A DNA stretch of 64,000 nucleotides, taken from Nitrospirota bacterium (lineage in GTDB: Bacteria > Nitrospirota > Thermodesulfovibrionia > Thermodesulfovibrionales > Magnetobacteriaceae). Position numbers and translations under genes: made by a program. Of this stretch, positions 23,283-55,822 are shown piece after piece (within the stretch, counting starts at the first letter, position 1; each line of letters starts with the position of its first letter). The notes under the pieces were generated by a model. That model saw nothing but the letters and a program-made list of their open reading frames with translations. It made no database searches and was not told where the DNA came from. The DNA is taken from contig JAMOAZ010000007.1 of NCBI GenBank assembly GCA_039908505.1, positions 22,317-86,316 on the forward strand, read 5' to 3'.

Positions 23283-23288
23283 CTTAAG

Positions 23289-23314
23289 AAGGGGGGTAAC
23301 CGTACCCCCTTTTT
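23289..23314 (+). terminator. Intrinsic terminator after sat
   Basis: GGGGGTA-ACCG-TACCCCC hairpin followed by TTTTT. Confidence 0.8.
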
Positions 23315-23434
23315 CATTTATTATAACGATAAGGAAAAAGGAGGTGAAGGTCGCAGCTTACACCCTAGTAGATGGCGACATAAATTAAATCTTGGCTTTT
23401 TAAGCCAAAATATTTTGCAAGGAGGTATATTTAT

Positions 23435-23860
23435 ATGCCGAGTTTTGTAATGACAGAAAAGTGTGACGGCTGTAAAGGGCAGGAAAGAACAGCCTGTATG
23501 TACATCTGCCCAAACAATCTTATGAAGCTTGACCGCGACAGGATGAAGGCGTTCAACCAGGAAACTGAGCAGTGCTGGGAATGCTACAACTGTGTAAAGA
23601 TTTGCCCGCAGCAGGCGATCGAGGTCAGAGGATATGCGGACTTTATTCCACTTGGCGGCAACGTAATACCAATGAGGGGTTCGGATTCCATAATGTGGAC
23701 TGTTAAGTTCAGAAGCGGTGCATTAAAAAGGTTTAAGTTCCCGATCAGGACAACGGCAGAGGGTTCGATAGATCCGTACAAAGGTAAGCCGGAAGCGGAC
23801 TTTGCGAATTTAAAGAAGCCCGGATTTTTTAACATGACAACGGTAAAAACCTTAAAATAA
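23435..23860 (+). CDS. aprB: Adenylylsulfate reductase beta subunit
   Basis: MPSFV..KCDGCKG..TACMYICP, CWECYNCVKICPQQAIEVRGYADF, IMWTVKFR. Confidence 0.97.
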   Translation: MPSFVMTEKCDGCKGQERTACMYICPNNLMKLDRDRMKAFNQETEQCWECYNCVKICPQQAIEVRGYADFIPLGGNVIPMRGSDSIMWTVKFRSGALKRFKFPIRTTAEGSIDPYKGKPEADFANLKKPGFFNMTTVKTLK

Positions 23861-23878
23861 AACTTAGGAGGCTATACG

Positions 23879-25852
23879 ATGGAATTAGAAACATGTACAT
23901 TTGCGTACTGTCAAAGACCTGAGATGATAGAGGTCGAGACCGACATTCTGTTAATCGGCGGCGGTATGGCTAACTGCGGCGCGGCATACGAGGCGGTGCG
24001 TTGGGCAACACCAAAGGGATTAAAGGTAACGATGGTAGATAAGGCAGCAGCCGACAGAAGCGGCGCGGTAGCGATGGGCCTTTCTGCAATCAACACATAT
24101 TTGGGCGAGAACGACCCTGTCGACTATGTAAAATACGTTAGAGGCGACCTGATGGGCATCATCAGAGAGGACCTCGTATATGACTGCGGCAGACACGTTG
24201 ACGATTCAGTGCACCTCTTTGAAGAATGGGGCCTCCCTGTATGGAAGAGGGCAGAAGACGGTCACACATTAGACGGCGCACAGCCCGCAAAGAAGCTTAC
24301 CGAAGGCGGCAAGCCTGTAAGAAGCGGTAAGTGGCAGATAATGATAAACGGCGAGTCCTACAAGGTAATCGTAGCCGAAGCAGCGAAGAAGGCGCTTGAG
24401 ATAAACAGGGCAGCAACCGGCCAGGAAATCAATCTCTATGAGAGAGTGTTTATTGTAAAGCTCCTCCTCGACGCTAACGAGCCGAACAGAGTAGCGGCAG
24501 CGGTAGGATTCAGCGTAAGAGAGAACAAGGCATACATGTTTAAGGCAAAGTGTATGTTATTGGCATGCGGCGGTGCAGTTAACGTATTCAGGCCGCGTTC
24601 CGTTGCTGAAGGACAGGGCAGGGCATGGTACCCGGTATGGAACGCTGGAACGACATACGCATTAGCGGCTCAGGTAGGCGCAGAGCTGGTGCTTATGGAA
24701 AACAGGTTCGTACCTGCAAGATTTAAAGATGGTTACGGCCCGGTTGGTGCGTGGTTCTTGTTCTTCAAGGCAAAGGCAACCAACTCCCTCGGCGAAGACT
24801 ATTGCGTAACTCACTTTGAAAGCACAAAGGCATTATATGGCAAATATTGCAGCGACCCGCACAAGCTCGGCACTGCTATCAGAAATCACATGATGATGAA
24901 CGACATGAAGGCCGGTAAAGGCCCGATTCTCATGAACACCCATCTGGCAATGGCAGAGCTCGGAAAGACCATGGACGCCAAGCAGATAAAGCACCTTGAG
25001 GCAGAGGCATGGGAAGACTTCCTCGATATGTGTATTGGACAGGCCGGAGTGTGGGCAGGAAACAACATCGAGCCGGATAAGGCCCCGTCTGAAATCATGC
25101 CGACAGAGCCGTATCTCCTCGGTTCACATGCAGGCTGCGCCGGTATATGGGTAAGCGGTCCTGACGATTTAGGCGCCCCGAAAGAATGGTGCTGGGGATA
25201 TAACAGAATGACCACCGTAAAGGGTCTCTTCACAGCCGGCGACGGCGTCGGAGCATCCGGACACAAGTTCTCCTCAGGCTCACACGCTGAAGGAAGACAA
25301 GCCGCTAAGTCAATGGTAGCATTCTGTCTCGATAACGCCTCATACAAGCCAGCAGTAGCTAAGTCAACCGAAGAGCTCATCGGAGAGCTTTATCTCCCGT
25401 TTGAGATATTCGAAAAATACAAGAACTACAGCACAGACACAAACACAAACCCATACTACATCAGACCAAAAATGCTTCAGGCAAGACTGCAGAAGATAAT
25501 GGACGAGTATGTAGCTGGCGTATCGACATACTACATGACCAGTAAGACTCTGCTTGACGCAGGCTTAAAGCATCTGATGCTCCTCAAAGAAGACTCGATT
25601 AGAATGGGTGCAGCAGACCTCCACGAGCTGATGAGATGCTGGGAAAACTATCACAGAATCTGGACAGGTGAGGCCCATGCAAGGCACATACTCTTTAGGG
25701 AAGACTCCAGATACCCGGGCTACTACTACAGGGGAGACTTCAACCTCATAGACGACCAGAACTGGAAATGCTTTACAATATCGAAGTTCAACCTCCAGAC
25801 CGGTCAATGGGAGATGTCCAAGAGAGATTACGTACAGTTGATTCCTGACTAA
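23879..25852 (+). CDS. aprA: Adenylylsulfate reductase alpha subunit
   Basis: DRSGAVAMGLSAINTY, GKWQIMINGESYK, GRAWYPVWNAG, RFKDGYGPVGAWF, GHKFSSGSHAEGR. Confidence 0.98.
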   Translation: MELETCTFAYCQRPEMIEVETDILLIGGGMANCGAAYEAVRWATPKGLKVTMVDKAAADRSGAVAMGLSAINTYLGENDPVDYVKYVRGDLMGIIREDLVYDCGRHVDDSVHLFEEWGLPVWKRAEDGHTLDGAQPAKKLTEGGKPVRSGKWQIMINGESYKVIVAEAAKKALEINRAATGQEINLYERVFIVKLLLDANEPNRVAAAVGFSVRENKAYMFKAKCMLLACGGAVNVFRPRSVAEGQGRAWYPVWNAGTTYALAAQVGAELVLMENRFVPARFKDGYGPVGAWFLFFKAKATNSLGEDYCVTHFESTKALYGKYCSDPHKLGTAIRNHMMMNDMKAGKGPILMNTHLAMAELGKTMDAKQIKHLEAEAWEDFLDMCIGQAGVWAGNNIEPDKAPSEIMPTEPYLLGSHAGCAGIWVSGPDDLGAPKEWCWGYNRMTTVKGLFTAGDGVGASGHKFSSGSHAEGRQAAKSMVAFCLDNASYKPAVAKSTEELIGELYLPFEIFEKYKNYSTDTNTNPYYIRPKMLQARLQKIMDEYVAGVSTYYMTSKTLLDAGLKHLMLLKEDSIRMGAADLHELMRCWENYHRIWTGEAHARHILFREDSRYPGYYYRGDFNLIDDQNWKCFTISKFNLQTGQWEMSKRDYVQLIPD

Positions 25853-25884
25853 GCGGTGAAATAGCAAGACGAAGTACACAGGAG

Positions 25885-25921
25885 GAAGGGGGGACGGCGT
25901 TCCCCCTTCTGACCTTTTTTT
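25885..25921 (+). terminator. Terminator/attenuator between aprA and qmoA
   Basis: GAAGGGGGGA-CGGCG-TTCCCCCTTC hairpin with a T7 run shortly after. Confidence 0.7.
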
Positions 25922-25955
25922 GGAGTCCGTAGCTTAAAAGAGAGTGGAGGATTTT

Positions 25956-27224
25956 ATGTCAGACGAGAAGGGTTCGGCCATCGTAGTAATAGGAGGTGGG
26001 ATAAGCGGGCTAACCACGGCGATAGAAGCGGCAGAAGCAGGCCAACGTTCGGTAATAGTGGAGAGAAATCCGTATTTGGGTGGAAGGGTAGCGCAGTTAA
26101 ACCGGTATTTCCCCAAGTTATGTCCGCCATACTGTGGATTAGAGGTAAATTTTAAGAGGATAAAGCAGAATCCCAAGATATCTGTTTATACGTCGGCAGA
26201 AATAGAAAGTGTTCAGGGAAGCGAAGGCAATTTTAAGGTTAAGATAAAAATCAATCCAAGATATGTAAATACCAAATGTACGGCATGTGGTGACTGTGTA
26301 AAGGTATGTCCTATAGAGAGAAGCAATAGTTTTAATTTTGGAATCGATAAGACAAAGGCGATATATCTGCCCCATGAGTTATCCTATCCAATGAGGTTTG
26401 TAATAGATGCCAGCCCTGGTGTATGTCCTGGAAAGTCATGTTCAAAATGCGTATCGGTTTGTAAGTATAATGCAATCGACCTTGATATGAAGGCAGAGAC
26501 AGTTGAGATAAATGCGTCAAGCGTTGTGTATGCAACAGGCTGGAGTCCGTATGATGCAGCGAAGATGGATAATCTTGGCTTTGGAAAGGTGAAAAACGTA
26601 GTAACCAATATGATGATGGAGCGCATGGCAGCGCCTAATGGCCCGACGAAAGGAAAAATTCTGAGGCCCTCGGACAACAAGCAGGTAAAAACGGTGGCGT
26701 TTGTGCAGTGTGCTGGCTCAAGAGACGAGAATCATCTGGCGCATTGTTCATCGGTGTGCTGCATGGCATCCCTAAAACAGGCTACGTATGTTAGGGAGAG
26801 CGACCCTGACACAAAGGCCTTTATATACTATATAGATTTGAGAGCGCCGGGGAGGTATGAAGACTTTTTGAAAAAGATTCAGGCCGACGCTAGCGTAATG
26901 ATGATAAAAGGTAAGGTAGCAAAGATAGAGGAAGACGCCGAGACTTTAGACCCCATCGTAACAGTGGAAGACATAACAGGTGGCAAAAAGATCACACAGA
27001 AAGTTGATATGGTTGTACTGGCAACGGGCATGGAGCCATCCTTGAAGACGGCAAATGTCAGCACAAACGTAAAACTGGACGAAAACGGCTTCGTCGATGC
27101 CGATGCACAAGCGGCAGGCATCTACGCTTCTGGGGTTGCCAAAAGGCCAAACGACGTTACAACGTCACTACAGGACGCCACTAGCGCGGCCTTGAAGGGC
27201 ATTCAATCCGCGGTGAGGAGGTAA
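25956..27224 (+). CDS. qmoA: QmoA (HdrA-like flavoprotein)
   Basis: IGGGISG FAD motif, YFPKLCPPYCGLE, FVQCAGSRDENHL..CS.VCC; start set at ATG 25956 after GGAGGA; follows aprA. Confidence 0.93.
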   Translation: MSDEKGSAIVVIGGGISGLTTAIEAAEAGQRSVIVERNPYLGGRVAQLNRYFPKLCPPYCGLEVNFKRIKQNPKISVYTSAEIESVQGSEGNFKVKIKINPRYVNTKCTACGDCVKVCPIERSNSFNFGIDKTKAIYLPHELSYPMRFVIDASPGVCPGKSCSKCVSVCKYNAIDLDMKAETVEINASSVVYATGWSPYDAAKMDNLGFGKVKNVVTNMMMERMAAPNGPTKGKILRPSDNKQVKTVAFVQCAGSRDENHLAHCSSVCCMASLKQATYVRESDPDTKAFIYYIDLRAPGRYEDFLKKIQADASVMMIKGKVAKIEEDAETLDPIVTVEDITGGKKITQKVDMVVLATGMEPSLKTANVSTNVKLDENGFVDADAQAAGIYASGVAKRPNDVTTSLQDATSAALKGIQSAVRR

Positions 27225-27227
27225 ACG

Positions 27228-29450
27228 ATGGGATTAGGTGTTTACATATGTACAGACTGTGGTATAGGTGAGTCGTTAAACATAGAAGCCCTTCAAAAGA
27301 TTGGAGGCAAAAAAGGCACTTGCAAGACACATCCGTTTCTGTGCAGCAAGGAAGGCGTAGACCTTATAAAGAACGACATAAACAATGAAGGCGTAAATAA
27401 GATAGTCATAGCGGCGTGCAGCCAGCGCGTCAACACGGACATGTTTGACTTCGACCCACTCCTGTATATAACGGAGAGGGTAAATCTGCGTGAGCATGTG
27501 GTATGGATGCAGCCCCCGAACGACCCCAAGACTCAGGCAATGGCTGAAGACTATGTGAATATGGGTATAGTACGTGCAAATAAGTCAGAGCCGCCTGTTC
27601 CGAAGACAACAGACGTAACACGGGTAGTGCTGATTATTGGCGGTGGAGTCACGGGGCTGACGGCTGCCCTTGAGATTGAGAAGGCTGGCTACAAATCAGT
27701 GGTGGTGGAAAAATCAGGGGCGCTTGGCGGCTGGTCAAAAAAGAGTTTTAAGACATATCCGGCAAAGGCCCCCTATGACAAACTCCTTGTCCCTGCAATC
27801 GACACGAAGATTAAGGCGGTCAGCTCAAGTCAAAACATCACGGTACATCTGGACAGCGCAATAACCTCGATAGAGGGCGAGCCTGGCATGTACGATGTAG
27901 AAATAGACAAAAAGGGCGCTAAGGAGACATTTAAGGCGGGTGCCGTAATCCTTGCAACCGGCTGGAAACCCTATGACGCAAATAATCTCGTACAATACGG
28001 CTATGGCAGATTTAAAAATGTCATAACGAATGTTGAGATGGAAGACCTTGCATCAAAAGGAAAGATAACGAGGCCCTCAGACGGCAAGACGGCAAAGAAT
28101 GTGCTGTTTGTCCAGTGTGCCGGACAGAGAGATGAAAATCACGTCCCATATTGCTCATCAGTTTGCTGCAATGTCTCCCTGAAGCAGGCAAAATATGTGA
28201 GAGAGGCCAATCCTGATGCGGGCGCCTTTATCATCTATAAGGATATGCGGGCAACCGGCGTATATGAGAACTTTTACAAGGCGATGCAAAATGATGAAGG
28301 CATATTCCTTGCCAAAGGTGAGGTAAAGGGGATAGAGGAAGAGGCAGATGGCAGCCTGATAGTCATCGTCGATAATCAGCTCCTCGGCAAGGAGATGAAA
28401 ATAAGGGTTGACGTTGTGGTATTGGCTACTGGAATGGTTTCTTCGATGCTGCCCGAAGGAAAGGCCGTCAACGACCTGACGAAAGAGTATATAGGTGAAA
28501 TGGTAAAAAAGAAGACGCAGGACGGTGAGATCGAAGAGCTTATGCCGATACCCCATATAATGAATCTGAAATACCGGCAGGGGCCTGAGATCCCTCACTT
28601 AAAGTATGGCTTTCCAGATTCCCACTTTATATGTTTCCCGTATGAGACCAGAAGGACGGGCATCTATGCTGCCGGTGCAGTGAGAAGTCCGATGGATTCG
28701 CACCAGTCGTCCGTTGATGCTGCCGGTGCCGCGCTAAAGGCCATACAGTGTATAGAGTTGACTGCACAGGGTAAGGCAGTGCATCCCAGAGCAGGGGACA
28801 TGTCGTTTCCTGAGTTCAGGCTTGAGAGTTGCACTCAGTGCCGCCGCTGTACGGTTGAGTGTCCGTTTGGTGTGCTTGATGAGGATGAAAAGGGAACGCC
28901 GAGAGAGCATCCTTACCGCTGCCGCCGTTGTGGAACCTGTATGGGTGCGTGTCCGCAGAGGATAATCTCCTTCAGCAACTACAGTGTGGATATGGTATCA
29001 TCTATAATGAAATCTGTTGATGTACCATCGGAGGGTGACGAACCGTTTATCATTGCCCTGATATGTGAAAACGATGCCTATCCTGCGTTAGACATGGCGG
29101 GGTTGAATCGGGTACGTTTAAATCCGAACTACAGGTTTGTATCTCTGAGGTGTCTTGGCGGGACGAATCTTGTGTGGATAACCGACGCGCTTTCAAAGGG
29201 TGTGGATGGAGTGCTTTTGATGGGCTGCAAGTACGGTGATGACTACCAGTGTCACTTTGTAAAGGGCAGTCAGGTAGCAAGCGAGCGTCTGAGCAAGGTG
29301 CAGGAGACTTTGGGCAGGCTGATGCTTGAGTCTGAGCGTGTTCATCAGATACAGCTTCAGATAAACGAGTGGGATACGCTTCCGAAGATAATGGAAGAGT
29401 TTTCAGAGAAACTAAAAGGATTTGGACCGAATCCATACAAGGGATTCTAA
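27228..29450 (+). CDS. qmoB: QmoB (HdrA-like + 2x[4Fe-4S] + MvhD domain)
   Basis: FVQCAGQRD, FICFPYETRRTGIYAAG, CTQCRRCTVECPFG, CRRCGTCMGACP, CENDAYPALD, GCKYGDDYQCHF. Confidence 0.95.
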   Translation: MGLGVYICTDCGIGESLNIEALQKIGGKKGTCKTHPFLCSKEGVDLIKNDINNEGVNKIVIAACSQRVNTDMFDFDPLLYITERVNLREHVVWMQPPNDPKTQAMAEDYVNMGIVRANKSEPPVPKTTDVTRVVLIIGGGVTGLTAALEIEKAGYKSVVVEKSGALGGWSKKSFKTYPAKAPYDKLLVPAIDTKIKAVSSSQNITVHLDSAITSIEGEPGMYDVEIDKKGAKETFKAGAVILATGWKPYDANNLVQYGYGRFKNVITNVEMEDLASKGKITRPSDGKTAKNVLFVQCAGQRDENHVPYCSSVCCNVSLKQAKYVREANPDAGAFIIYKDMRATGVYENFYKAMQNDEGIFLAKGEVKGIEEEADGSLIVIVDNQLLGKEMKIRVDVVVLATGMVSSMLPEGKAVNDLTKEYIGEMVKKKTQDGEIEELMPIPHIMNLKYRQGPEIPHLKYGFPDSHFICFPYETRRTGIYAAGAVRSPMDSHQSSVDAAGAALKAIQCIELTAQGKAVHPRAGDMSFPEFRLESCTQCRRCTVECPFGVLDEDEKGTPREHPYRCRRCGTCMGACPQRIISFSNYSVDMVSSIMKSVDVPSEGDEPFIIALICENDAYPALDMAGLNRVRLNPNYRFVSLRCLGGTNLVWITDALSKGVDGVLLMGCKYGDDYQCHFVKGSQVASERLSKVQETLGRLMLESERVHQIQLQINEWDTLPKIMEEFSEKLKGFGPNPYKGF

Positions 29451-29470
29451 AATAACAGGGAGGTATGCAC

Positions 29471-30640
29471 ATGGGTGATGCAGTGTTCACACCTGACATT
29501 GGGTTTGTTCGGGGCTTAAAGGAGGGCGGCGCCGACACTATGAAGCAGTGTTATCAGTGCGCGACGTGCTCTACGGTATGCGACCTGACACCGGCTGACA
29601 ACCCGTTTCCAAGAAAAGAGATGATAATGGCCCAGTGGGGGTTAAAGGAAGAGCTGTCGGCAGACCCGGACATCTGGCTTTGCCACAACTGTAACGACTG
29701 CTCAAAGTACTGTCCCCGCGGTGCAAGACCGGGTGATGTCTTATCGACATTGAGAAAGGCCGTAATAGCCGAGAACGCCTTCCCGAGGTTTATGGGCACG
29801 ATAGTGGGAAATGCAAAGCTGCTCTTAGTGGCGTTGTTGATTCCAGTGGCGCTGTTTCTTGCCTTGTTAAATGCCACCGGGCACTTAAACATACCGGCTG
29901 GCGATGTGGTCTTCAACAAATTTTTCCCGATTCCACTTGTCGATGCGATATTTGTAACGACGGCGATGTGTGTAGTGTTTGTGTTTGCTATAAGCGTGAG
30001 CAGGTTTTGGGGCAAACTCAATGTAAATCCATATAAGCTGATGGCACATAGTATGTTAATACCAAGTTTAATAGAGACCCTGAAGGAGATTGTATTTCAC
30101 AAGAAGTTTCAGAAATGCGGCGCTAATGCAGACAGGACGTGGACGCACAGGCTGATTGTAGCAGGGTTCATAGGTCTGTTCATACAGACAAACTGGGCGG
30201 TATTTAACTTGTATGTGCTGAAGTGGGAAACGCCGTTTCTGAAGGACGACCCAAATATGATGATGATTCTGGGGTCACAGGCAGCGGTGATGATGTACTA
30301 TGCGGTCTACAAGATATTCGGCAATACGAGTGCCCTGCTGTTGTTAATAGGGTCACTGATGCTGTTTGCCAATCGAATGAAGGACAAGGGTGTGAACAGC
30401 GTATCATCGTCTTTTGACTGGGTATTTGCGGTGATGGTGTTTTTGGTATGTATAACGGGGTTGCTGTCAGAGTTTTGCAGGTTTGCGAACAATGCACAGG
30501 TGGCCTATCCTATGTACTTTATTCATCTGGTATGCGTGTTTTACATAATAGCGTACCTGCCGTACTCGAAATTGGCGCACATGGTATATAGGACGACTGC
30601 GATTGTGTACGCGAAAATGGCAAATCGGGACGTAATGTAA
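29471..30640 (+). CDS. qmoC: QmoC (HdrC-like Fe-S domain + HdrE-like membrane cytochrome b)
   Basis: CYQCATCSTVC, WLCHNCNDCSKYCPRGARPGD, TM helices, YFIHLV, LPYSKLAHMVYR; ATG 29471 fits SD spacing better than 29465. Confidence 0.95.
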   Translation: MGDAVFTPDIGFVRGLKEGGADTMKQCYQCATCSTVCDLTPADNPFPRKEMIMAQWGLKEELSADPDIWLCHNCNDCSKYCPRGARPGDVLSTLRKAVIAENAFPRFMGTIVGNAKLLLVALLIPVALFLALLNATGHLNIPAGDVVFNKFFPIPLVDAIFVTTAMCVVFVFAISVSRFWGKLNVNPYKLMAHSMLIPSLIETLKEIVFHKKFQKCGANADRTWTHRLIVAGFIGLFIQTNWAVFNLYVLKWETPFLKDDPNMMMILGSQAAVMMYYAVYKIFGNTSALLLLIGSLMLFANRMKDKGVNSVSSSFDWVFAVMVFLVCITGLLSEFCRFANNAQVAYPMYFIHLVCVFYIIAYLPYSKLAHMVYRTTAIVYAKMANRDVM

Positions 30641-30642
30641 GG

Positions 30643-30675
30643 CCAGTAAATTACCAGTAAATTACCAATAAATTA
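30643..30675 (+). repeat. 3 x 11-bp tandem repeat after the qmoC stop
   Basis: CCAGTAAATTA CCAGTAAATTA CCAATAAATTA. Confidence 0.9.
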
Positions 30676-30678
30676 ACA

Positions 30679-30716
30679 GACGCCTCAATCTGTGCCAAGC
30701 GGGCGATTGAGGCGTC
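30679..30716. other. Perfect 12-bp inverted repeat between qmoC and the YkgJ-like gene
   Basis: GACGCCTCAATC (30679-30690), 14 nt, GATTGAGGCGTC (30705-30716). Confidence 0.85.
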
Positions 30717-30745
30717 AAAACACATCGGAGAGAGTGGGAGAGAGA

Positions 30746-31567
30746 GTGAAAGAAATCTACGAGAAATTAAATAAAGACCCGGAAAGAAGGGGAGAACTTG
30801 GGCCTGAGAGCCGTTTTAAGTTCAACTGCCACAAGGGAATAGCATGTTTTAATAAGTGTTGTGGTGAACTGGAGATATTCCTATCGCCCTATGATGTACT
30901 AAGATTGAAGAGGCGGTTTGGCAAGACCAGCGGGGAGTTTCTCGTTGAATATACTGATATGGTGGTAACGGATAAGAACAAGTTGCCGTTTATTAAATTA
31001 CGAATGGCAGAGGGCAAGCAGTGTAAGTTTGTAACAAAGGAAGGCTGTTCGATATATGAAGACAGACCATTGGCGTGCAGGTACTATCCCTTGGGGTTTG
31101 CGATAGGCAAGCGGACGATGACTGAGGGAGAGGATTTTTATTTTCTGATAGAGGAGAGTTTTTGCAAGGGATTTAAAGAGGACAAAGAGTGGGTGGTGAA
31201 GGACTGGCGCGAACGGGAAGGGATAGCCAAATATGAGGCGATGAACAGCGACTGGATAGAGGTAATCCTCAATAAAAAATTACTGGGAAAATCCGTCGTC
31301 CCTGATGAAAAGACAATAAGCATGTTTATACTTGGTGCATACGATGTGGACGCCTTCAGGGTATTTGTGCATGAGAGCAAGTTTTTACAGATATTTGATT
31401 TAAACGATGAAGAGCTACAGTTAATCACAGAAAACGAAGAAGAGCTAATGAAGTTTGCCCACAGATGGCTGAGATATGCCCTGTTCAGAGAGCCGACAAT
31501 GTACCTGAAAAACAGAGACGACTCCAACCCACCGCAAGGTAACTGCGGTTGCAATACCTGCACATAA
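30746..31567 (+). CDS. YkgJ-family (UPF0153) cysteine-cluster protein
   Basis: FKFNCHKGIACFNKCC, LSPYDVLRL, CKFV...GCSIYEDRPLACRYYP, ESFCKG; likely start GTG 30746 after GGAG (the track start at 30692 lies inside the hairpin). Confidence 0.85.
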   Translation: MKEIYEKLNKDPERRGELGPESRFKFNCHKGIACFNKCCGELEIFLSPYDVLRLKRRFGKTSGEFLVEYTDMVVTDKNKLPFIKLRMAEGKQCKFVTKEGCSIYEDRPLACRYYPLGFAIGKRTMTEGEDFYFLIEESFCKGFKEDKEWVVKDWREREGIAKYEAMNSDWIEVILNKKLLGKSVVPDEKTISMFILGAYDVDAFRVFVHESKFLQIFDLNDEELQLITENEEELMKFAHRWLRYALFREPTMYLKNRDDSNPPQGNCGCNTCT

Positions 31568-31865
31568 TTTCAACAGAATCTGACCGGCATATATAGTTGT
31601 CAGCGTAGAGGAGGAGATCAGTCCTATCAACCTAATTTGTGTTTCAGCGGATGTTCATGACTAAAAGCCATTAAAAATCATACAGAAAGGGGACTTAGAG
31701 CAAAACGCAACAATAATCAGCCACAAATACAGAAAACATAATACAATATTATACCAGACAATACGTAGTAATATACTTTATAGTGTACTAAATATATATG
31801 TATGTCGGTGAGTCAATTTTATACGTAAATGGTAAGATGTCGTGGCTCGGTATCTGCTGCGAGAG

Positions 31866-32120
31866 TCATACCGCGAGGGGGAAAAGGTCAGGCATCGCCT
31901 GTGTCATCAGTGCCTTCAGATTCTCTGTGGCCTTCGCTATGAATGCTGCCCTGCCTTCCCTCAGCTTCTCTTGTTCCTTATCATGAATTTTCGATAAATA
32001 ACTGAATACTACCGATTCCGACGGCGTCGTCCTTTTACGCTCTTTACGAAATCTTCTCTGTATCGCTCGTCTTTCTCTTCGACTTAGTCCCGACCTTTTG
32101 TGTCTTAATATTTCACCTCG
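31866..32120 (-). pseudogene. Fragment of a probable IS1380-family transposase
   Basis: Manual translation without a start codon: RGEILRHKRSGLSRRERRAIQRRFRKERKRTTPSESVVFSYLSKIHDKEQEKLREGRAAFI, resembling the N-terminal half of IS1380-type transposases as I recall them; no DDE region. Confidence 0.5.
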
Positions 32121-32337
32121 TTGGTGTTAGTTTTTTGTGTCCAACCTTATTCTAATATCCCGAATAGTCAGGTAACAACGAGGTCCATTATTTTTTTGAT
32201 GGTGAATCAAGGGACTCTTGTAACGCTATGCTTGGGGGATATAACGGTATCTAAGCGGTTTAGGGTTATTTGATATGGAAAATGTGAAACAAAAGGAGTA
32301 TGTGTACATACTCCTTTTGTTATGGTGAATTCAGCTA

Positions 32338-32775
32338 TTATACTTTCTTTAATTGTGCGCCGCAGCGGCATTTACCGGGCTTGTCCGACACTGTATTGCA
32401 CGTACAGCCATCGGAGCAGCCACACGCATACAGCCCTTTAATGCTTACCTTCTTCACTATCTTGCCACAGCCGCACTTCGTAGGGTCATCTTTGTCCAGT
32501 TTGCACGAACAGCCCTTTCCACACGTACACAAGAGTGTCTCATCGCCCTCTATCTTCAGTACATGCATCTGTACAAGGTCTTGCCCGCAGGTACATTTGC
32601 CGGGCTTTGTCATTACGGTATCACACGTACACGTATCACCGCAGTTGCATACGTATAGTATATCGCCTGGTTTACGCTTGGAAGCTCCCTTCTTCTTACC
32701 TTCAGCATATGCCAGGCCAGTACTCAGTATCAGCACTAAAAACAACGACAAATACACAAAAACTCTTTTCTTCAT
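32338..32775 (-). CDS. Exported Cys-rich protein with three (CxC)3 repeats; metallothionein/heavy-metal-binding-like
   Basis: Signal peptide ending AYA; SD AAGGAG; 18 Cys as 9 CxC pairs in three repeats; repeats 1 and 3 share Y.C.C...C.C.TV..KPGKC.CG..L. Confidence 0.8.
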   Translation of the reverse strand: MKKRVFVYLSLFLVLILSTGLAYAEGKKKGASKRKPGDILYVCNCGDTCTCDTVMTKPGKCTCGQDLVQMHVLKIEGDETLLCTCGKGCSCKLDKDDPTKCGCGKIVKKVSIKGLYACGCSDGCTCNTVSDKPGKCRCGAQLKKV

Positions 32776-32814
32776 AAGATTCTCTCCTTGTAAAATATAT
32801 TCTTACTGTGAGTT

Positions 32815-32844
32815 AACTTAACATAGTTGGCTATTGCTTGTCAA
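32815..32844 (-). promoter_or_regulatory. sigma70-like promoter for the Cys-rich gene
   Basis: TTGACA (32844-32839), 18 nt, TAAGTT (32820-32815). Confidence 0.5.
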
Positions 32845-32991
32845 ACACCGCTAATTATCTGTAATTACCGGCGCACAAAAGACCCGTATAGGTCGCTGCC
32901 GTTGATTAATTTACTCTGAATGAAAGTCTGGATTGACTAAAATCGATATACAAACACACCACCACCTATCACCAGAAATTCTGGTTAAGGT

Positions 32992-33113
32992 AATTTGAAA
33001 AGTGGCCGGTCAACCTGATAGTTATTGGCGGTTGTAATCACTGTTTCCCAATGATTCACGTGCTGCAACTTTGTTTGCCCAAACCCCCGTGACCAGCCCT
33101 TTTCTTTTTAATT
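32992..33113 (-). ncRNA. Candidate structured RNA (long imperfect hairpin with central internal loop)
   Basis: Nested pairings 32997-33002/33099-33104, 33004-33012/33090-33098, 33031-33034/33066-33069, 33036-33043/33049-33056; two mismatches become G-U on the minus strand. Confidence 0.35.
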
Positions 33114-33133
33114 ATTGCGGATTGCCTAGCGTA

Positions 33134-33340
33134 CTAATCTATGATTGCTACGTTAGTTGCCCTCAATCCTTTCTTGTCGTGTTCAACGTCGAAAGAAACC
33201 ATCTGTCCTTCCTCTAACGTTTTAAACCCGCTGGTCTTAATAGCTGAATAGTGGACAAAGACATCCTCTCCATCGCTCTTGCTAATGAAACCATACCCCT
33301 TGCTGACGTTGAACCATTTTACTTTTCCTTCAAATGACAT
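33134..33340 (-). CDS. csp: Cold-shock protein (CspA family)
   Basis: [33 protein letters not shown]. Confidence 0.96.
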
Positions 33341-33388
33341 GTTGAAACACTCCTTACTGCTTGCTTAGCCCTTTAAAAGGGCATTTAT

Positions 33389-33418
33389 ATGGTAACTTTA
33401 TCACAGCAAAAAAGTCAA
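33389..33418 (-). promoter_or_regulatory. sigma70-like promoter for csp
   Basis: TTGACT (33418-33413), 18 nt, TACCAT (33394-33389), followed by a GCCCTT/AAGGGC leader hairpin. Confidence 0.55.
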
Positions 33419-33486
33419 CGATAAAAATAATATTTTTTTAAGCCGACATCTCCGCCCTGTTTTCCATATTATTTCCAGTATTGGTC

Positions 33487-36024
33487 TTATCTCAGTTTTA
33501 CACCAAGACAGATGCCAAGCCGCTCATAATTGTCCAGCCACCTGCGGGCTGTGTCATCTGCACCTGCTGCCCTGTCCATCATTACAGACCTCAGCTCTTT
33601 TCCTATAATAAAATATATATTTTGCACCTTCCACAGATTAGGCTCTATAGAGAGGGATTTCAGTATATCGGCTACCTTGCCTGTCTTTTCATATAACTCT
33701 GCATATTCCCGCTGTACGAACAGTGTCTCTGCAAGATAGTTTATCAGTGCTGTGGCATGATAGCTAAGCTTGTATGTGTCTATTGCGATGTTCCATTTCC
33801 TGATTTCGTCGCTTATGCCCTGGAGCTTTACTATATCGATGGATTTAGATTCAAATATAGTCATCAGGTCTTTCTCAATGGTATATGCGGCGGCAATCGT
33901 CAGGGATTTGGGCAGCGGCACGGAAAGTCCCCTGTAGAAATCCATAAGCGGGTAGTGGCTTTCGTATATTTGTCTGTACTGAGCGTCAATTCCATTATTT
34001 GGCTCACCTGTGGGACCTTGTGAGAGTATATCGAGGATTCTTCTTTGTCCGTCTCTAAACAGGTGTGAAAAGGAGTAGTTCTCACTGCTGAAGTGCGTTT
34101 GCATCAGGCTGATAACTGTTGGGATAAGACCCTTGCCGAAGGCATCTGTCAACTGTACCTTAATCGCGCTGAAATCAGTGTCATTTGAGAAGTCCTTAAT
34201 TCTGCAGCTTATACTGTGGTCATCGAGATTTAAAACTGCATAGACGAGCGTGCGCTCATCCCATGTTATCTCAGAGGTTATCTTAATCTTGCCTGTGGCA
34301 AACCTCATAGTACACGTGGTAACCTCATCATATGACAGACGCTCTACCGTATAGCAAAACAAGCTTAAACGCACTGGATTGTGTTCAAAAAGAGATGAGA
34401 TTGCGTAGTGGGCGGCAGCACGCATAATATCCACCTTTGACGGCTTTACAAACTCCTCATACGGATAGGCACCAGAGCTGAATACATTGCTTCGTGCGTG
34501 GCGGAGCTTTTCTATATATTCACCCTCAAGGGAAATACCGGTCAAGTCTTGTGCATACTGCATTGCCCGTGCGGCATAGTCCATTATTTGAACTGTCTCG
34601 ATACCGGATATTTCATCAAAAAACCACCCGCAGCTTGTGTACATGAGCATGGAGTTGCGCTGCATCTCAAGCAGTTTTAGTACCCTTGTCCGGTCTTTCA
34701 TTGTGAGGTTCGTAAGGGCGTGGCGGTCTATGAAGGCGTTGACTGTTGCCCTGCTTCTGTCGAGAATCACCTCTATGTAATCGTTACGGGCATCCCAGGG
34801 GGATTTTAAATATTTCCCTCCTTCTATTTCAAATATACCGGCAAGCCTGTCTCTGAGCCAATCCATAGCGTCTCGCAGGGGGCGCCGCCATTGTTGTGAC
34901 CACCCATGATGCATTCCACTGCAGCAGCCACAGTCATTCATCCACCTTCCTATGCCGTGAACACAGCTCCATGACGAGCCGTCGTAGATTTCCACCTCGT
35001 ACACTGGCGGGTATTTCTCAAGGTATTGCCCATAGTTCGTCAGCTTGACCCCCGTGCTGGATTCTATTACGTGCAGGCAATATGTCAGGGCCATCTCCCC
35101 TCTATTGTGGTGATGACCGTATGTCTCGCCGTCTGTGGCTATGTGGACTATCTGTGGAAAATCTCTTGTGTCTGTAAAAGCAGAGGTAAGTCTGTAAGCG
35201 AAATTTCCGCCATCGTGTAAAACGCCGCTAAAGGCAATGTCACCTGATATTGGTCCATCATAGAAAAACAGGGTAATTGTCCTGCCAGAGGGGAGTCTGC
35301 ACAGGTAGGGCATTGCAGGGTCAATCCGACCATTGCTTACGTCTGTCCAGAGGTCTTGGTCCCGTGTTTCCTGCTCTTCCATAATTACTGGCATGTCGGC
35401 CATTTCATCATCAGCGGCCTCATCGTCAGAAGAAGGGTTAGTCTCGGGTTTTTTTACCCTTGATGCCTGGCGAGGGGCAAGAATTGTGTACAATATCCCA
35501 TTGTCCACTAGAATGTCGAGGGTTTCCCTGTCAACTGCGGTCTCGGCAAGCCAAATCCCCTCAGGCCTCCTTCCAAATCGTGCCTCAAAATCCCGTATTC
35601 CCCATATCACCTGTGTTATCTTATCGAACTGATTGGCTAGCGGCATAATCATGTGGTTATATACCTGTGCTACCGCTGAACCGTGCCCTGAGAATCTCTC
35701 CATACTAAGCTTGTCCGCCTCAATGATGGCGCGATACACATCAGGGTCATGTCTTTGCAGCCACGACAGCAGCGTCGGCCCAAAGTTAAAACTCATCTTC
35801 GAGTAGTTGTTAATAATACCGGTGACCATTCCCTCGTGGTCGAGAATTTTTGATGCGGCATTGGCGGCATAACACTCAGCCGTAATACGCTCATTCCAGT
35901 TGTGATAGGGGGCAGCCGAGTCCTGATACTCAACTTCCTCAAGCCACGGGTTTTCGCGCGGAGGCTGGTAAAAGTGCCCGTGTATACATATATACCTTTC
36001 CATATGGCTATTGTCTTTTTCCAT
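33487..36024 (-). CDS. Glycoside hydrolase family 57 with DUF3536-type C-terminus
   Basis: CIHGHFYQPPRENPW, SFNFGPTLLSW, YNHMIMPL, GIWLAETAVD, ATDGETYGHH, MYTSCGWFFD; start set at ATG 36024. Confidence 0.92.
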   Translation of the reverse strand: MEKDNSHMERYICIHGHFYQPPRENPWLEEVEYQDSAAPYHNWNERITAECYAANAASKILDHEGMVTGIINNYSKMSFNFGPTLLSWLQRHDPDVYRAIIEADKLSMERFSGHGSAVAQVYNHMIMPLANQFDKITQVIWGIRDFEARFGRRPEGIWLAETAVDRETLDILVDNGILYTILAPRQASRVKKPETNPSSDDEAADDEMADMPVIMEEQETRDQDLWTDVSNGRIDPAMPYLCRLPSGRTITLFFYDGPISGDIAFSGVLHDGGNFAYRLTSAFTDTRDFPQIVHIATDGETYGHHHNRGEMALTYCLHVIESSTGVKLTNYGQYLEKYPPVYEVEIYDGSSWSCVHGIGRWMNDCGCCSGMHHGWSQQWRRPLRDAMDWLRDRLAGIFEIEGGKYLKSPWDARNDYIEVILDRSRATVNAFIDRHALTNLTMKDRTRVLKLLEMQRNSMLMYTSCGWFFDEISGIETVQIMDYAARAMQYAQDLTGISLEGEYIEKLRHARSNVFSSGAYPYEEFVKPSKVDIMRAAAHYAISSLFEHNPVRLSLFCYTVERLSYDEVTTCTMRFATGKIKITSEITWDERTLVYAVLNLDDHSISCRIKDFSNDTDFSAIKVQLTDAFGKGLIPTVISLMQTHFSSENYSFSHLFRDGQRRILDILSQGPTGEPNNGIDAQYRQIYESHYPLMDFYRGLSVPLPKSLTIAAAYTIEKDLMTIFESKSIDIVKLQGISDEIRKWNIAIDTYKLSYHATALINYLAETLFVQREYAELYEKTGKVADILKSLSIEPNLWKVQNIYFIIGKELRSVMMDRAAGADDTARRWLDNYERLGICLGVKLR

Positions 36025-36202
36025 TGTATAACTATAGCACATATTTGTAATTAGCGCAATCACCTGTGTTTCTCAGTCTGAATTTTTACCCCTCAAAATA
36101 ACTAATGGCGGTTTCAGAATCAAATAATTAAAAATCTCACATGCAAGCGCATACAATGTGGTGAGATTTGGGTTGGAAGGAACTTTTTAGGTTGTGATAT
36201 AA

Positions 36203-38165: not shown

Positions 38166-39659
38166 TTATTGAATAGCGTCTCTGGGTGGTATGGGCGTGT
38201 TTGCCCCGTCGTCATAGCGATCAACATCAAGCGTATAGCGCCTGAGGTTGTCAAAATCATGGTCGTCACCCTGCTTTACAGCGTTAGGCGCGGGTTTAAA
38301 ACCGCTAGCTGACACCGTTTTTGCTACTGTGTCCGCTATGGCGTTAACGATTAAGTCATAACCCTCCTTATTAAGATGGCAGCATGAGTCAATATATACC
38401 TGTGTTTTGACTGCTTTAAACATTAATGTCAAATCGGTGAAATTAACCCCCGCCTTATGCAGCCCCACACCCCCGGCACGCATATATGGAAACCCACGTT
38501 CGACTTCCTGCTTAAATGGGGATGATGTGGCAAGCGCCACTGATACCTCCTCTGCTGACAGAGGCTTGCTGCCAATAAAATATTGATTCGGCTGAAGAAA
38601 TTGAAAATACATACCCCCCTGATTTGCTATCAGGTTGTTTAACATAACAGAGCTTCTTTGCCAGTGCCTTACTATGTCGATATATAGGTCTCGTACCGTT
38701 TTATATTGCTGGTCAGTACCCAGGAACGCAGTCCCGCACTGTGTCGAACGTATCTTGTGAAGCTCACCTACATCGCCAGAGACTATGAGTTTTGTCAGCG
38801 CTGCCTCACTTGCCTCTTTCTTTTGCTTGGCTCCAGCATCGAGTACCTTCCACATCAGATTTCCTGTGGCTGTGTGGGAAGGCAGCCATGAGGAAAATAT
38901 TAAAGAGGCATCTGTTCGGCGTTTTTCAGCCAGCGCTATCATGGCCATGGCAATCTCCTGGTCTTTTGATATCTTTCTCTCCGTCAGGGTTCTCCAGCCG
39001 CGCGGGAAATGAAACGGTATACCGTCCTGAATGTTATGGTGGGCAAGTGGGAGGACTATTTCGTTAAATCCATCAAGGTTAATAAGAATGTCAAAATTGC
39101 CGCCCTGCGCGATGATGTCAGAGACGACATGCAGTTGTTGGGGTTGTTTGTATGCCAGACTTGCTATATTTATTAGTATCACCTTTCTGCCCTTAAACTC
39201 TGGAATTTCACTCAGGTGTTTTACCAGTGTATCTTCCGCCAGCACCGTCATAACTGTGGCTACCGAGCCACCCGTAACGCCGACCAACAAGTTCTGTTCA
39301 CTTCTTTGCTGCACGGGGTCATTTTTGCCAAAAAAGCCATACCTGTTTCTGTCGATTTTGATTTTATCGAGTCCGATGATGTTTTTAAGACGCTCATCAG
39401 GGATTTCATCCAGCACATAACCATAATACGGGTGTAACAGATGAAATAACTTGACAGCGGGTATGTTCATGTTGCCAGCATCCGTGCGCATGGATTTGAT
39501 TATACCATGTCGATCGTTTTCTAACTGCTCAAAAGACATCCACGACTTGTATATCACTCTGTATGTAACATAAGAGGACAGCTCAACAAAGGCAGTTACC
39601 GCTGATATTAAGATTGCGTAAAGCAGCGCCTGCCTTAGTGTTTTGTTTGATTGGGACAT
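38166..39659 (-). CDS. Membrane-anchored SGNH/GDSL-like hydrolase-fold protein
   Basis: N-terminal TM; GVTGGSVA, NLDGFNE, FLQPNQY, YIDSCCHLN (DxxH-like). Confidence 0.65.
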   Translation of the reverse strand: MSQSNKTLRQALLYAILISAVTAFVELSSYVTYRVIYKSWMSFEQLENDRHGIIKSMRTDAGNMNIPAVKLFHLLHPYYGYVLDEIPDERLKNIIGLDKIKIDRNRYGFFGKNDPVQQRSEQNLLVGVTGGSVATVMTVLAEDTLVKHLSEIPEFKGRKVILINIASLAYKQPQQLHVVSDIIAQGGNFDILINLDGFNEIVLPLAHHNIQDGIPFHFPRGWRTLTERKISKDQEIAMAMIALAEKRRTDASLIFSSWLPSHTATGNLMWKVLDAGAKQKKEASEAALTKLIVSGDVGELHKIRSTQCGTAFLGTDQQYKTVRDLYIDIVRHWQRSSVMLNNLIANQGGMYFQFLQPNQYFIGSKPLSAEEVSVALATSSPFKQEVERGFPYMRAGGVGLHKAGVNFTDLTLMFKAVKTQVYIDSCCHLNKEGYDLIVNAIADTVAKTVSASGFKPAPNAVKQGDDHDFDNLRRYTLDVDRYDDGANTPIPPRDAIQ

Positions 39660-40746: not shown

Positions 40747-42486
40747 ATGACTAAAGATACGACCCAAGATATCAAGATTTCGGCATATGCCGTTGTGATT
40801 GCTTTGTGCCAGGTCTTATACCTGCTAACATTTATTAACGGCGCATTCGGGGCTGTTGGGGGATATGATGACCCACTGAAACCACTTACCGATAAAACAG
40901 TCAAATTTTTTAACCCGCTCACACTAAAAGTTGATGCTGTCAAAGGCACTGCCCTCACCCTCAGAGGTGACACATCAGAAAAGGCCGTACCAGGTACCAG
41001 ATTTGAAATCTTCAGACAAGGCGCCATGTTCTATCACCCTGTCACGAACGAACCGCTTGGACATTTCGAGGACTTCATTGGCTCAATTGAGATAACAGGC
41101 GTAAAACCTGACGGCGAGACGGCGGCAAGTCTCATAAAAGGCACTCCAAAAAAAGGCGATATTGCACGCCTGTCTAAGTCAAAGATCAGGGCGCTGTTCT
41201 ACCAGGACAAGTCCATCGATTGGTTCCTCGGTGATGTTTACTACAGACAGCTCAAACAAAGCGGCCGCTTCGAGCTTATCGACACGGCTATAGATGCTGA
41301 AAACACCGCCGCACTGTTTGAGGAGGCAAAAAAGCTGGGCGCCGATGTGCTTATCCTGATTGAAGGCTCAAAAAAAGATGAGATCAGGGATGAGAACAAA
41401 TACCTGAAGCAGCGCATCTACTGGGTCTCTGATAAAAAGGAAGTGTCTTCAGATACCGTAGCAATATCAGAGACATATCTTCAGGATGTCATTGCTGCGG
41501 CAGACATATTCCTGTCCGCGATGAATGAACCGGTTCTTACGTATCGTATGCCCATTGGGTATGACCTGATGACAATAGGCAATATCAACGGCGGCAGTGA
41601 TGTGGACCTTATCTTCAGCACTGGCTCTGACCTTGCAGTTTACAAGCCCGGCGTTGATATGAACAAGATAATGGAACTCAAGGGTGACAAGATGAGCGAT
41701 AACGTATATATTGACGTTATAGATATAAACAAAGACGGCAGAGACGAAATCATAGTAACTGCAATGGCCTATGACGGCGCAAGGGCGTTTATCTATGGAG
41801 TTGAGGGCGGGCAGCTTAAGTTGTTGTGGAAGGCCAGCGGCTTTTTAAGGGTATATGGCAATAAACTCCTGTTTCAGCGCTACACCCCCAGAGAAGGACA
41901 AGTCGGCAATGTTGACTATATAGTTTGGGACAGCAATCATTTCAAAGAGGAAGGACAGTTAAAACTGCCATCCGGGGTTAATCTCTATGATTTTGTCTAT
42001 CTTGCACCCGCCGCAGAGGACGCTAAATCTGAACCCGTGACATTATTCTACGACAACGCTAACCACCTCGTTGTGAAGAACTCCGCCGGGACACGCATCT
42101 GGCGCAGCAAGGGCAGCATGGGCGGCTTTATCAGGGAGTACAATATCCCTGGCCCGACTATCATGGTAGAAGGAGGCAAGTGGCACATAAGCGACAAGAT
42201 GTTCCTGTATCATAAAAAAGGCATTGTTATCAGGAGAATCCCGTTTGCCCTGACCTCGGCGTCATTGGGTTATAAGAAATCATATATAATGAGCTACGGG
42301 TTTAACGGTATCTCAGTCGAAGAGAACACACTTGTCGGTGCGGTAGCTGGGAATATAATAGACTATACGATATACAAAGACAGGATTTATGTATTAGCAA
42401 GACCAATACTGGGGCTTAATCTGTCTGGGATGCTCAAGGGAGAAAACCCCCTTGTGACCAATCTGTTTATATATAAATTGTTATAG
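40747..42486 (+). CDS. Exported protein with FG-GAP/VCBS-like repeats
   Basis: N-terminal TM/signal; GNINGGSDVDLIF, IDINKDGRDEIIV; beta-rich C-terminal half. Confidence 0.7.
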   Translation: MTKDTTQDIKISAYAVVIALCQVLYLLTFINGAFGAVGGYDDPLKPLTDKTVKFFNPLTLKVDAVKGTALTLRGDTSEKAVPGTRFEIFRQGAMFYHPVTNEPLGHFEDFIGSIEITGVKPDGETAASLIKGTPKKGDIARLSKSKIRALFYQDKSIDWFLGDVYYRQLKQSGRFELIDTAIDAENTAALFEEAKKLGADVLILIEGSKKDEIRDENKYLKQRIYWVSDKKEVSSDTVAISETYLQDVIAAADIFLSAMNEPVLTYRMPIGYDLMTIGNINGGSDVDLIFSTGSDLAVYKPGVDMNKIMELKGDKMSDNVYIDVIDINKDGRDEIIVTAMAYDGARAFIYGVEGGQLKLLWKASGFLRVYGNKLLFQRYTPREGQVGNVDYIVWDSNHFKEEGQLKLPSGVNLYDFVYLAPAAEDAKSEPVTLFYDNANHLVVKNSAGTRIWRSKGSMGGFIREYNIPGPTIMVEGGKWHISDKMFLYHKKGIVIRRIPFALTSASLGYKKSYIMSYGFNGISVEENTLVGAVAGNIIDYTIYKDRIYVLARPILGLNLSGMLKGENPLVTNLFIYKLL

Positions 42487-53396: not shown

Positions 53397-53414
53397 GGAC
53401 GGGAGGTGATAGTC

Positions 53415-53588: not shown

Positions 53589-53589
53589 A

Positions 53590-54120: not shown

Positions 54121-54138
54121 GATGAAGGAGGATTTAAG

Positions 54139-55818: not shown

Positions 55819-55822
55819 CCAT

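Follow-up and report, generated by a model that had tools for sequence, protein, structure and literature searches.

An exported protein of anaerobic bacteria with three six-cysteine modules apparently derived from a heavy-metal-binding domain

How strict anaerobes control thiophilic metals in a periplasm exposed to sulfide is poorly understood: copper should be trapped as an insoluble sulfide, and copper is needed for CuA/heme-copper oxidases and for N2O reductase. This question is raised by a small gene in a stretch of 64,000 nucleotides (hereafter, the window) from a Nitrospirota bacterium of the family Magnetobacteriaceae (assembly GCA_039908505.1, contig JAMOAZ010000007.1, positions 22,317 to 86,316). 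The open reading frame (ORF) at window positions 32338..32775, on the minus strand, begins with ATG and encodes, stop codon included, an exported Cys-rich protein of 145 amino acids. What do its 18 cysteines do outside the cytoplasm? The answer favored here, with a probability of roughly 55%, is that they make the protein a periplasmic, thiolate-rich buffer, store or chaperone of soft metals, with Cu(I) as the leading candidate.

The protein consists of a signal peptide, a linker and three Cys-rich modules, all encoded on the minus strand, and its full sequence is MKKRVFVYLSLFLVLILSTGLAYA, EGKKKGASKRKPG, DILYVCNCGDTCTCDTVMTKPGKCTCGQDLVQMHVLKIEGD, ETLLCTCGKGCSCKLDKDDPTKCGCGKIVKKVSIK and GLYACGCSDGCTCNTVSDKPGKCRCGAQLKKV, joined end to end. 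The first of these segments (residues 1–24; 32704..32775) reads as a signal peptide of the Sec type, with MKKR as its positive n-region, a hydrophobic core of 17 residues (VFVYLSLFLVLILSTGL) and a cleavage motif between AYA and E, without a twin-arginine motif; in the structural model, it is a low-confidence helix apart from the body. The second (residues 25–37; 32665..32703) is a Lys-rich, flexible linker that is poorly conserved in alignments, with a predicted local distance difference test score (pLDDT) below 50 at residues 23–33. Module 1 covers residues 38–78 (YVCNCGDTCTC...KPGKCTCGQDL and a β-strand; 32542..32664), module 2 residues 79–113 (LLCTCGKGCSCKLDKDDPTKCGCGKIV; 32437..32541) and module 3 residues 114–145 (LYACGCSDGCTCNTVSDKPGKCRCGAQLKKV; 32341..32436). 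The modules share the spacing C-x-C-x3-C-x-C-x9-C-x-C, with Cys at positions 43, 45, 49, 51, 61 and 63, at 83, 85, 89, 91, 101 and 103, and at 118, 120, 124, 126, 136 and 138, so that the CxC triplets are CNC-CTC-CTC, CTC-CSC-CGC and CGC-CTC-CRC. Modules 1 and 3 end in KPGKC..CG..L, and module 2 carries DPTKCGCGKIV instead. The modules match one another out of register in tblastn searches and are therefore mutually homologous; the additional tblastn matches, which might have been taken for tandem paralogues, are these internal repeats and not second genes.

The mature protein (121 amino acids, 12.9 kDa) contains 18 Cys (14.9%), 20 Lys, 16 Gly, a single His and only 2 aromatic residues, both Tyr, with nine CxC motifs and no CxxCH. 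A preliminary description of this DNA, made from the sequence alone, had reported the signal peptide, the Lys-rich linker, the three (CxC)3 repeats with 18 Cys, the near lack of aromatics and the lack of CxxCH, and all of these hold down to the exact triplets and spacing. Going by sequence, the protein is best explained as a small soluble periplasmic protein, exported unfolded by the Sec pathway, with lipoprotein forms in some relatives.

The Cys-rich ORF is a real gene under purifying selection. A search of 5.8 billion proteins retrieves 361 relatives at E ≤ 1e-3, nearly all of them 135–150 amino acids long and every one labeled ‘hypothetical’ or ‘secreted protein’; the best, with 96% identity, comes from Candidatus Magnetominusculus xianensis (HCH-1). 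All 18 Cys are invariant across 113 homologues (48–96% identity), where the mean column identity is merely 54%, and dN/dS, the ratio of nonsynonymous to synonymous substitution rates, is 0.13–0.21 in comparisons with five relatives. Jointly with the homology of the modules, these values put the Cys-rich pattern far beyond chance. A rival ORF on the plus strand (32300..32821), encoding 173 amino acids and longer than the Cys-rich gene to which it is antisense, was rejected, since the Cys- and Lys-biased composition of the coding strand most likely accounts for it. This ORF may mislead gene callers that rely on length; one such caller lost the true gene in 24 of the 80 related loci.

The family is sizable and appears to be confined to anaerobes. 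Searched with a profile, 1.84 billion cluster representatives yield 318 clusters (50% identity) at E ≤ 1e-3, and species-representative genomes contain 111 relatives. The anaerobic hosts from Nitrospirota belong to Thermodesulfovibrionia, including magnetotactic genera, Dissulfurispiraceae and Ca. Sulfobium; the hosts from Desulfobacterota to Desulfuromonadales, Desulfobulbales and Desulfosarcina/Desulfococcus; and those from Acidobacteriota to Holophagae, Aminicenantes and Vicinamibacterales. A link to magnetosomes was discarded, the family being spread across many non-magnetotactic lineages. An N-terminal hydrophobic region is present in 182 of the 192 full-length relatives, 40 of which have a lipobox, so that the family is extracytoplasmic throughout. 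Family-wide, module 2 is the best conserved of the three: even the distant members keep C85, C89, C91, C101 and C103 without exception, and C83 almost always. The number of modules varies. In a two-module sub-family of ~127 amino acids (VGDxVYVCxCG...; P0174, P0181, P0206, P0208, P0218 and others), a Cys-free, β-like spacer of ~30 residues takes the place of the middle module between two Cys6 modules, and P0157 has four modules.

The origin of the module can be gleaned from the distant members. The preliminary description noted that the ending KPGKC..CG..L recalls the heavy-metal-binding domains of efflux adaptors, and this has become the key lead. In distant members, module 1 or module 3 is often a four-Cys unit, such as YVCPDCHVTALQAGKCPKCGKDM or YYCTMCHNEISDKPGKCPVCGMEM, and several of these units exceed the gathering threshold of the Pfam domain HMBD (PF19335; 23.6 bits), namely, those of P0264 (39.4 bits), P0204 (35.9), P0228 (28.8) and P0177 (23.8). 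In full-length family alignments, the passing units coincide with module 1 or 3 of the window protein: module 1 aligns position for position with the HMBD units of P0204, P0177 and P0228 (YVCNCGDTCTCDTVMTKPGKC-TCGQDL against YVCP-----DCHVTALQAGKCPKCGKDM), and the unit of P0264 is the equivalent of module 3. From this positional equivalence to bona fide HMBD units, it follows that the six-Cys module is an HMBD-type unit modified twice; as judged from the alignments, each module is a derived HMBD rubredoxin-knuckle unit. Relative to HMBD, the first knuckle is five residues longer and bears two added Cys (C-x-x-C becomes C-x-C-G-x-x-C-x-C), and the second is one residue shorter (C-P-x-C-G becomes C-x-C-G, that is, CxxC becomes CxC). 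The four-Cys variants retain C1, C4, C5 and C6, which identifies C2 and C3, the C-G-x-x-C pair of the expanded loop, as the added ones; C2 and C3 are nonetheless invariant in all 113 closest relatives.

The modules have moved some way from the parent domain. HMBD matches just 3 of the 72 six-Cys units, with a best E-value of 1.7e-4; when module 3 is scanned alone, HMBD is the sole Pfam match, below threshold (14.9 bits, E = 0.026). The HMBD motif, Y-x-C-P-M-H ... P-G-x-C-P-x-C-G-M-x-L, does not fit the window protein, which shows Y-x-C-x-C-G-x-x-C-x-C ... P-G-K-C-x-C-G-x-x-L, with Cys where HMBD has its Met and His ligands and no Met or His of its own. Like the N-terminal HMBD of Legionella CopA (LpCopA; 8OVL) and that of SilB, a periplasmic adaptor of RND (resistance-nodulation-division) systems, the module has a Y-x-C start on strand 1, a P-G-K-C...C-G-x-x-L/M knuckle followed by a β-strand, and a presumed soft-metal sulfur site; unlike them, it comes as three copies in a free-standing exported protein rather than as one copy on a pump. 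An HMBD-type unit matches the N-terminal domain of LpCopA in the PDB (8ovl, 3rfu), and the weak matches of a four-Cys unit include rubredoxins and rubrerythrin in the PDB and Zn_ribbon families in Pfam. Nuclear magnetic resonance shows the LpCopA domain to be a small sheet of three strands and two loops, the rubredoxin-knuckle CPxCG forming one of the loops; M44, C59 and M61 coordinate Ag(I), and by inference Cu(I), and a similarity to the Ag(I)-bound N-terminal domain of SilB is noted (PMC11970713). C45 of the window protein would occupy the position of the ligand M44 (C42-x-M44 in LpCopA, YVC43-N-C45 here), a correspondence taken from the motifs and not from a computed alignment. A published account of PF19335 as a ferredoxin-like MxCxxC domain (PMC13254101) conflicts with the Pfam model used here and was not relied upon.

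The predicted structure is compatible with a small knuckle fold. The AlphaFold model of the full protein is β-rich, with a pLDDT of ~91 over residues 50–145, a strand-loop-strand-knuckle-strand pattern that occurs three times and the signal peptide as the sole helix; a single module is modeled with a pLDDT of 81.7. This confident, ordered model, built without metal, argues for a defined fold. In Foldseek searches, the best match of the single module is the LID region of the adenylate kinase of Bacillus (E = 3, TMq 0.49, non-significant), which holds a Zn-Cys4 site; the likeness is consistent with a knuckle fold and proves nothing. Searched by sequence against the PDB, the protein and the family profile return only chance-level matches (an antibody signal peptide, Avr1 and the sulfurtransferase TUM1, the latter at E = 0.13), the whole protein has no match in NCBIfam, and a comparison with plasmid-borne metal-resistance islands gives none either.

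The second line of evidence comes from the genomic neighborhoods. No partner gene is shared by the family: 104 Pfam families are represented among the 116 flanking genes, each in at most 4 loci, and when the neighbors of 78 loci are clustered by BLAST, no family occurs in more than 9 loci, those being generic kinases and ABC ATPases. A conserved operon was likewise rejected, since four loci looked up have four differing neighborhoods. What does recur, in ~10 of the 80 loci, is copper-related genes (NosL, SCO1/SenC and Cu-exporting P-type ATPases). In two Nitrospirota metagenome-assembled genomes (loci L089 and L016), the gene lies between two NosL genes, 24 and 13 nucleotides from its neighbors. 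In three loci from Desulfobacterota (L023, L068 and L074), it is followed by NosL, MacB/FtsX and an ABC ATPase, with SCO1/SenC nearby, and in three more from Nitrospirota (L063, L075 and L084), it is convergent with a FixI-type Cu-ATPase gene, followed by FixH and FixG. At L065, the protein encoded upstream looks CusA-like when its N-terminal sequence is inspected by eye. NosL itself is an established Cu(I) chaperone (PMC6530538, PMC8457098).

The same-strand cluster at positions 119–18441 of L089 (the same as L020, and present also in L016) runs from a NosR/NosD fusion, NosF and NosY through two CarboxypepD_reg proteins, a transglutaminase-core protein and a thioredoxin-like protein to NosL, an uncharacterized protein of 103 amino acids, the Cys-rich gene, the second NosL, MacB/FtsX, an ABC ATPase and a 335-amino-acid membrane protein of unknown function, and ends in a TRASH/ATPase-cat_bd peptide, an HMA P-type ATPase and DsbD_2; within this stretch, no NosZ can be seen. 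The module NosL, MacB/FtsX permease, ABC ATPase and ~335-amino-acid membrane protein without a Pfam family, often with SCO1 nearby, recurs in Desulfobacterota and Nitrospirota (L023, 898–3510; L068, 6680–9295; L074, 3196–6839; L065, 7802–11021) and may represent an undescribed periplasmic transporter that handles copper.

Given the Cu(I)/Ag(I) binding of the parent module and the recurrence of copper chaperones and exporters nearby, the most likely role of the protein is the binding of Cu(I). That it binds metal of some kind is probable; that this metal is specifically copper is a more tentative proposal, at somewhat less than even odds. Of the broader suggestion in the preliminary description, a multi-metal (Cu, Zn, Fe) store or chaperone, the copper part has gained from the NosL, SCO1 and Cu-ATPase neighbors, and nothing was found that speaks for iron. 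The protein would be exported unfolded by the Sec pathway and would fold in the reducing periplasm of its anaerobic hosts. Each module would then offer six thiolates, with the flanking lysines balancing the charge of the metal-thiolate sites. In metallothioneins, lysines offset the charge of this kind, and a Lys-rich, aromatic-poor composition is typical of metal-thiolate proteins. The 18 thiolates would most likely bind soft metals, Cu(I) first, with Zn(II) and Cd(II) as possible others. We infer the stoichiometry and the partners as follows: each module would take one or two ions or a small metal-thiolate cluster, the options for six Cys being one ion on C1, C4, C5 and C6 with a second on C2 and C3, an M2Cys6 binuclear center, or a Cu4S6 cluster; and the protein, as a high-affinity buffer, store or chaperone that shields the metal from sulfide and shields sensitive targets from the metal, would exchange metal with dedicated chaperones such as NosL and SCO1.

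A bolder version of this proposal would make the family a new class of periplasmic metallothioneins, in which the copper-sensor knuckle of HMBD has turned into a Cys6 site for a polynuclear Cu(I)-thiolate cluster (e.g. Cu4S6, up to ~12 Cu per protein) that keeps copper bioavailable against sulfide precipitation in strictly anaerobic sulfide producers and feeds NosL, SCO1, CuA/heme-copper oxidase or N2O reductase. In this full form, the idea is unlikely to be right.

Several observations weigh against the soft-metal reading. About 87% of the loci, the window included, have no metal-related neighbor, and the copper neighbors stem from just ~5 independent lineages. By a general estimate, only a few percent of randomly chosen genes would have a gene of the NosL, SCO1 or Cu-ATPase type close by; the enrichment of copper genes near the family is suggestive, not proven. 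The whole window protein has no HMBD match at E ≤ 10 in a Pfam scan; the full model has no Foldseek match in the PDB under E = 0.46, only generic small barrels of the KOW/SH3/Tudor-like kind, and 8ovl is absent among the listed Foldseek matches of the full model and of the single module. The four Cys that are kept in the four-Cys variants, C1, C4, C5 and C6, could simply hold a structural Zn, and C2-G-x-x-C3 could form a disulfide. Finally, in the search for evidence of expression, the stretch was found in no public sequencing run.

The last of the structural points lead to the strongest alternative, namely, that the modules are a scaffold, zinc-ribbon or disulfide-stapled knots that stabilize a compact extracytoplasmic protein whose real job is to bind a partner, acting for instance as adaptor, inhibitor or part of the envelope. 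The Cys retained in the four-Cys variants are the classical structural zinc-ribbon set, the model is ordered and β-rich, unlike a disordered metallothionein, the closest analogue in structure, the adenylate kinase LID, holds a structural Zn-Cys4 site, and the majority of the loci lack a metal-related neighbor. However, the invariance of the two added Cys per module in the 113 closest homologues is hard to explain by scaffolding alone, in the parent HMBD module the Cu(I)/Ag(I) site is functional rather than structural, and there is no conserved partner gene. The hosts, in addition, are strict anaerobes with reducing periplasms, and one of the clusters carries thioredoxin-like and DsbD_2 genes that supply reductant. 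On balance, a purely structural role is unlikely.

More doubtful still is a periplasmic redox protein that scavenges oxidants as a thiol/disulfide buffer or carries electrons on rubredoxin-type Fe(Cys)4 centers. The rubredoxin-like knuckles, the rubredoxins and rubrerythrin among the weak PDB matches of the four-Cys unit, the location of the L001 gene amid genes for Fur, catalase-peroxidase, MsrB and MsrA, and the thioredoxin-like and AhpC/TSA-family neighbors in a few loci would fit such a protein. Nevertheless, the signal is of the Sec type and not Tat, so that a pre-assembled Fe center could not be exported; the oxidative-stress surroundings are those of a single locus; no redox partner is conserved; and the adjacency to qmoABC in the window is not kept even among the closest relatives. 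Very improbable, finally, is a carrier of sulfane sulfur (persulfides or polysulfides) or a handler of metal sulfides in the periplasm of sulfur-cycling anaerobes, for which one can cite the hosts (sulfate reducers, sulfur disproportionators and metal reducers), the sat-aprBA-qmoABC genes next to the window gene and the location of the L089 gene within a nosDFY-like cluster, of a kind thought to provide sulfur for the CuZ center, but the apr/qmo surroundings are not conserved, rhodanese, Sud or Sox-type neighbors do not recur, the only sulfurtransferase similarity is the chance-level one to TUM1, and the module shares its ancestry with a metal-binding domain rather than with sulfur carriers; the polysulfide store of the preliminary description finds nothing that points to it.

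How does a proposed periplasmic soft-metal protein of this design compare with known systems? Its presumed action comes closest to that of a metallothionein or a copper store. With metallothioneins (SmtA/BmtA and the plant Ec/PEC type, PF02068), it shares CxC and CxCGxxCxC motifs, ~15% Cys, many Lys and Gly and almost no aromatics, and it fits the generic definition of a small, Cys-rich, aromatic-poor protein, its Cys content being near the lower limit and its size near the upper; unlike them, it is exported rather than cytoplasmic, larger, and predicted to be an ordered β fold of three modules. The best Pfam match of the whole protein is Metallothio_PEC, at 14 bits (E = 0.065) against a threshold of 31.8, and it belongs to no curated metallothionein family. 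‘Metallothionein-like’ is, then, apt for the composition and inapt for family membership and for the classical disordered state.

From the zinc ribbons and rubredoxin, which likewise have two knuckles on a small β scaffold and which the four-Cys variants resemble, the protein differs in having six Cys per module with CxC spacing, in being extracytoplasmic and in its tandem triple arrangement. With NosL and SCO1/SenC, its neighbors in several lineages, it has in common a proposed periplasmic handling of Cu(I) by Cys (and Met) ligands, NosL carrying a C-x-x-C-G-M knuckle and SCO1 a CxxxC motif; there is no homology over the protein body, and these chaperones bind one or two ions, compared with 18 Cys in three modules here. 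Csp1 is exported via Tat, in contrast to the Sec signal of the Cys-rich protein. The periplasmic copper storage protein of N. gonorrhoeae is an exported, Csp1-type, Cys-lined four-helix bundle (PMC12510493). The likeness to Csp1 lies in the extracytoplasmic location, the many Cys thiolates and the proposed buffering or storing of Cu(I) for cuproenzymes; the fold is different, β knuckles instead of helices (the mature model is all β and coil), and there is no sequence relationship. Given such exported proteins (PMC12510493), the concept of a Cys-rich periplasmic copper store is not new, and the statement in the preliminary description that characterized bacterial metallothioneins (SmtA, MymT) are cytoplasmic leaves them out of account. 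The novelty lies in the Cys6 module, in the free-standing triple architecture and in a family that is unannotated and restricted to anaerobes.

The gene appears to be transcribed on its own. A ribosome-binding site, AGGAGAG, ends 6 nucleotides 5' of the ATG (32782..32788, minus strand), and relatives have sites of the AAGGAGG type at the equivalent place. Further upstream on the same strand (32815..32844), a putative sigma-70-like promoter combines a −35 element TTGACA (32839–32844), an 18-nucleotide spacer and a −10 element TAAGTT (32815–32820); it was read from the sequence, a scanner for consensus promoters did not report it, and the pattern TTGACA-N18-TA(T/A)(G/A)(T/C)T is kept in the nearest relatives (L009, L010, L017 and L019). 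A terminator-like hairpin of the upstream cspA gene, found by a terminator scan (32881..32894, minus strand), sets the Cys-rich gene apart as a separate transcription unit. On the other side, 19 nucleotides past the stop codon, a perfect 12-bp hairpin (AAAAGGAGTATG-TGTA-CATACTCCTTTT; 32291..32318, no strand assigned) is a putative bidirectional terminator between the Cys-rich gene and the convergent qmo cluster; read from the sequence, it is missing from the terminator scan because of its short T-run.

Downstream of the gene lies a convergent sat-aprBA-qmoABC-CxxCxxCC cluster (22056–31567, plus strand), a complete module of dissimilatory sulfate reduction that encodes ATP sulfurylase, AprB, AprA, QmoA, QmoB and QmoC, followed by a CxxCxxCC (PF03692) protein of 291 amino acids, with an adenylate kinase gene (21338–21997) just 5' of it. 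Upstream, on the strand of the Cys-rich gene, are cspA and a GH57/DUF3536 gene. A functional link to sat-aprBA-qmoABC was rejected, the two being convergent and separated by a hairpin, and the qmo side being common to 0 of the 80 related loci, including that of HCH-1; the order GH57, cspA, Cys-rich gene is found also in L017 and L019, and cspA alone in L012. The HCH-1 locus (L009) has no qmoC, cspA or GH57 gene within 6 kb on either side (compared with window positions 29465–36063), which means that the gene and its promoter are differently placed in the two genomes.

The same window contains a heme-copper oxidase cluster (52635–56629, plus strand) with a di-haem cytochrome c, subunit II, COX1 and SCO1/SenC, in which subunit II (53590–54120, 176 amino acids) carries the CuA motif CNEYCGPGHHAM. 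This cluster, in a sulfate reducer, implies that the genome needs copper in the periplasm. The earlier suggestion that the Cys-rich protein serves this CuA enzyme is nevertheless conjecture: the cluster lies 20 kb away with a SCO1 of its own, and the neighborhood in the window is not conserved. Elsewhere in the window, the minus-strand ORF at 48794–50716 encodes an unusual membrane-anchored fusion of 640 amino acids, with an N-terminal cytochrome b domain, a 4Fe-4S dicluster and a FlpD/MvhD-like domain; a DsrE/DsrF-like sulfur-relay protein (4990–5403, plus strand) adjoins an MFS transporter and a patatin-like phospholipase; and three ORFs have no Pfam family at E ≤ 1e-5 (8231–10720, minus strand, 829 amino acids; 38166–39659, minus strand, 497; 40747–42486, plus strand, 579).

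For the biology of these anaerobes, the significance depends on the role of the cysteines. If these are purely structural, the finding shrinks to a new small zinc-ribbon repeat protein. An unannotated family of ~300 clusters has been missed by the current domain databases. A conserved, exported protein with 18 thiolates, derived from a copper-binding module, is a concrete, testable candidate for a role in periplasmic copper handling under sulfide, and if this role is true, HMBD would be a case of a single-ion sensor domain that evolved into a storage module with many thiolates.

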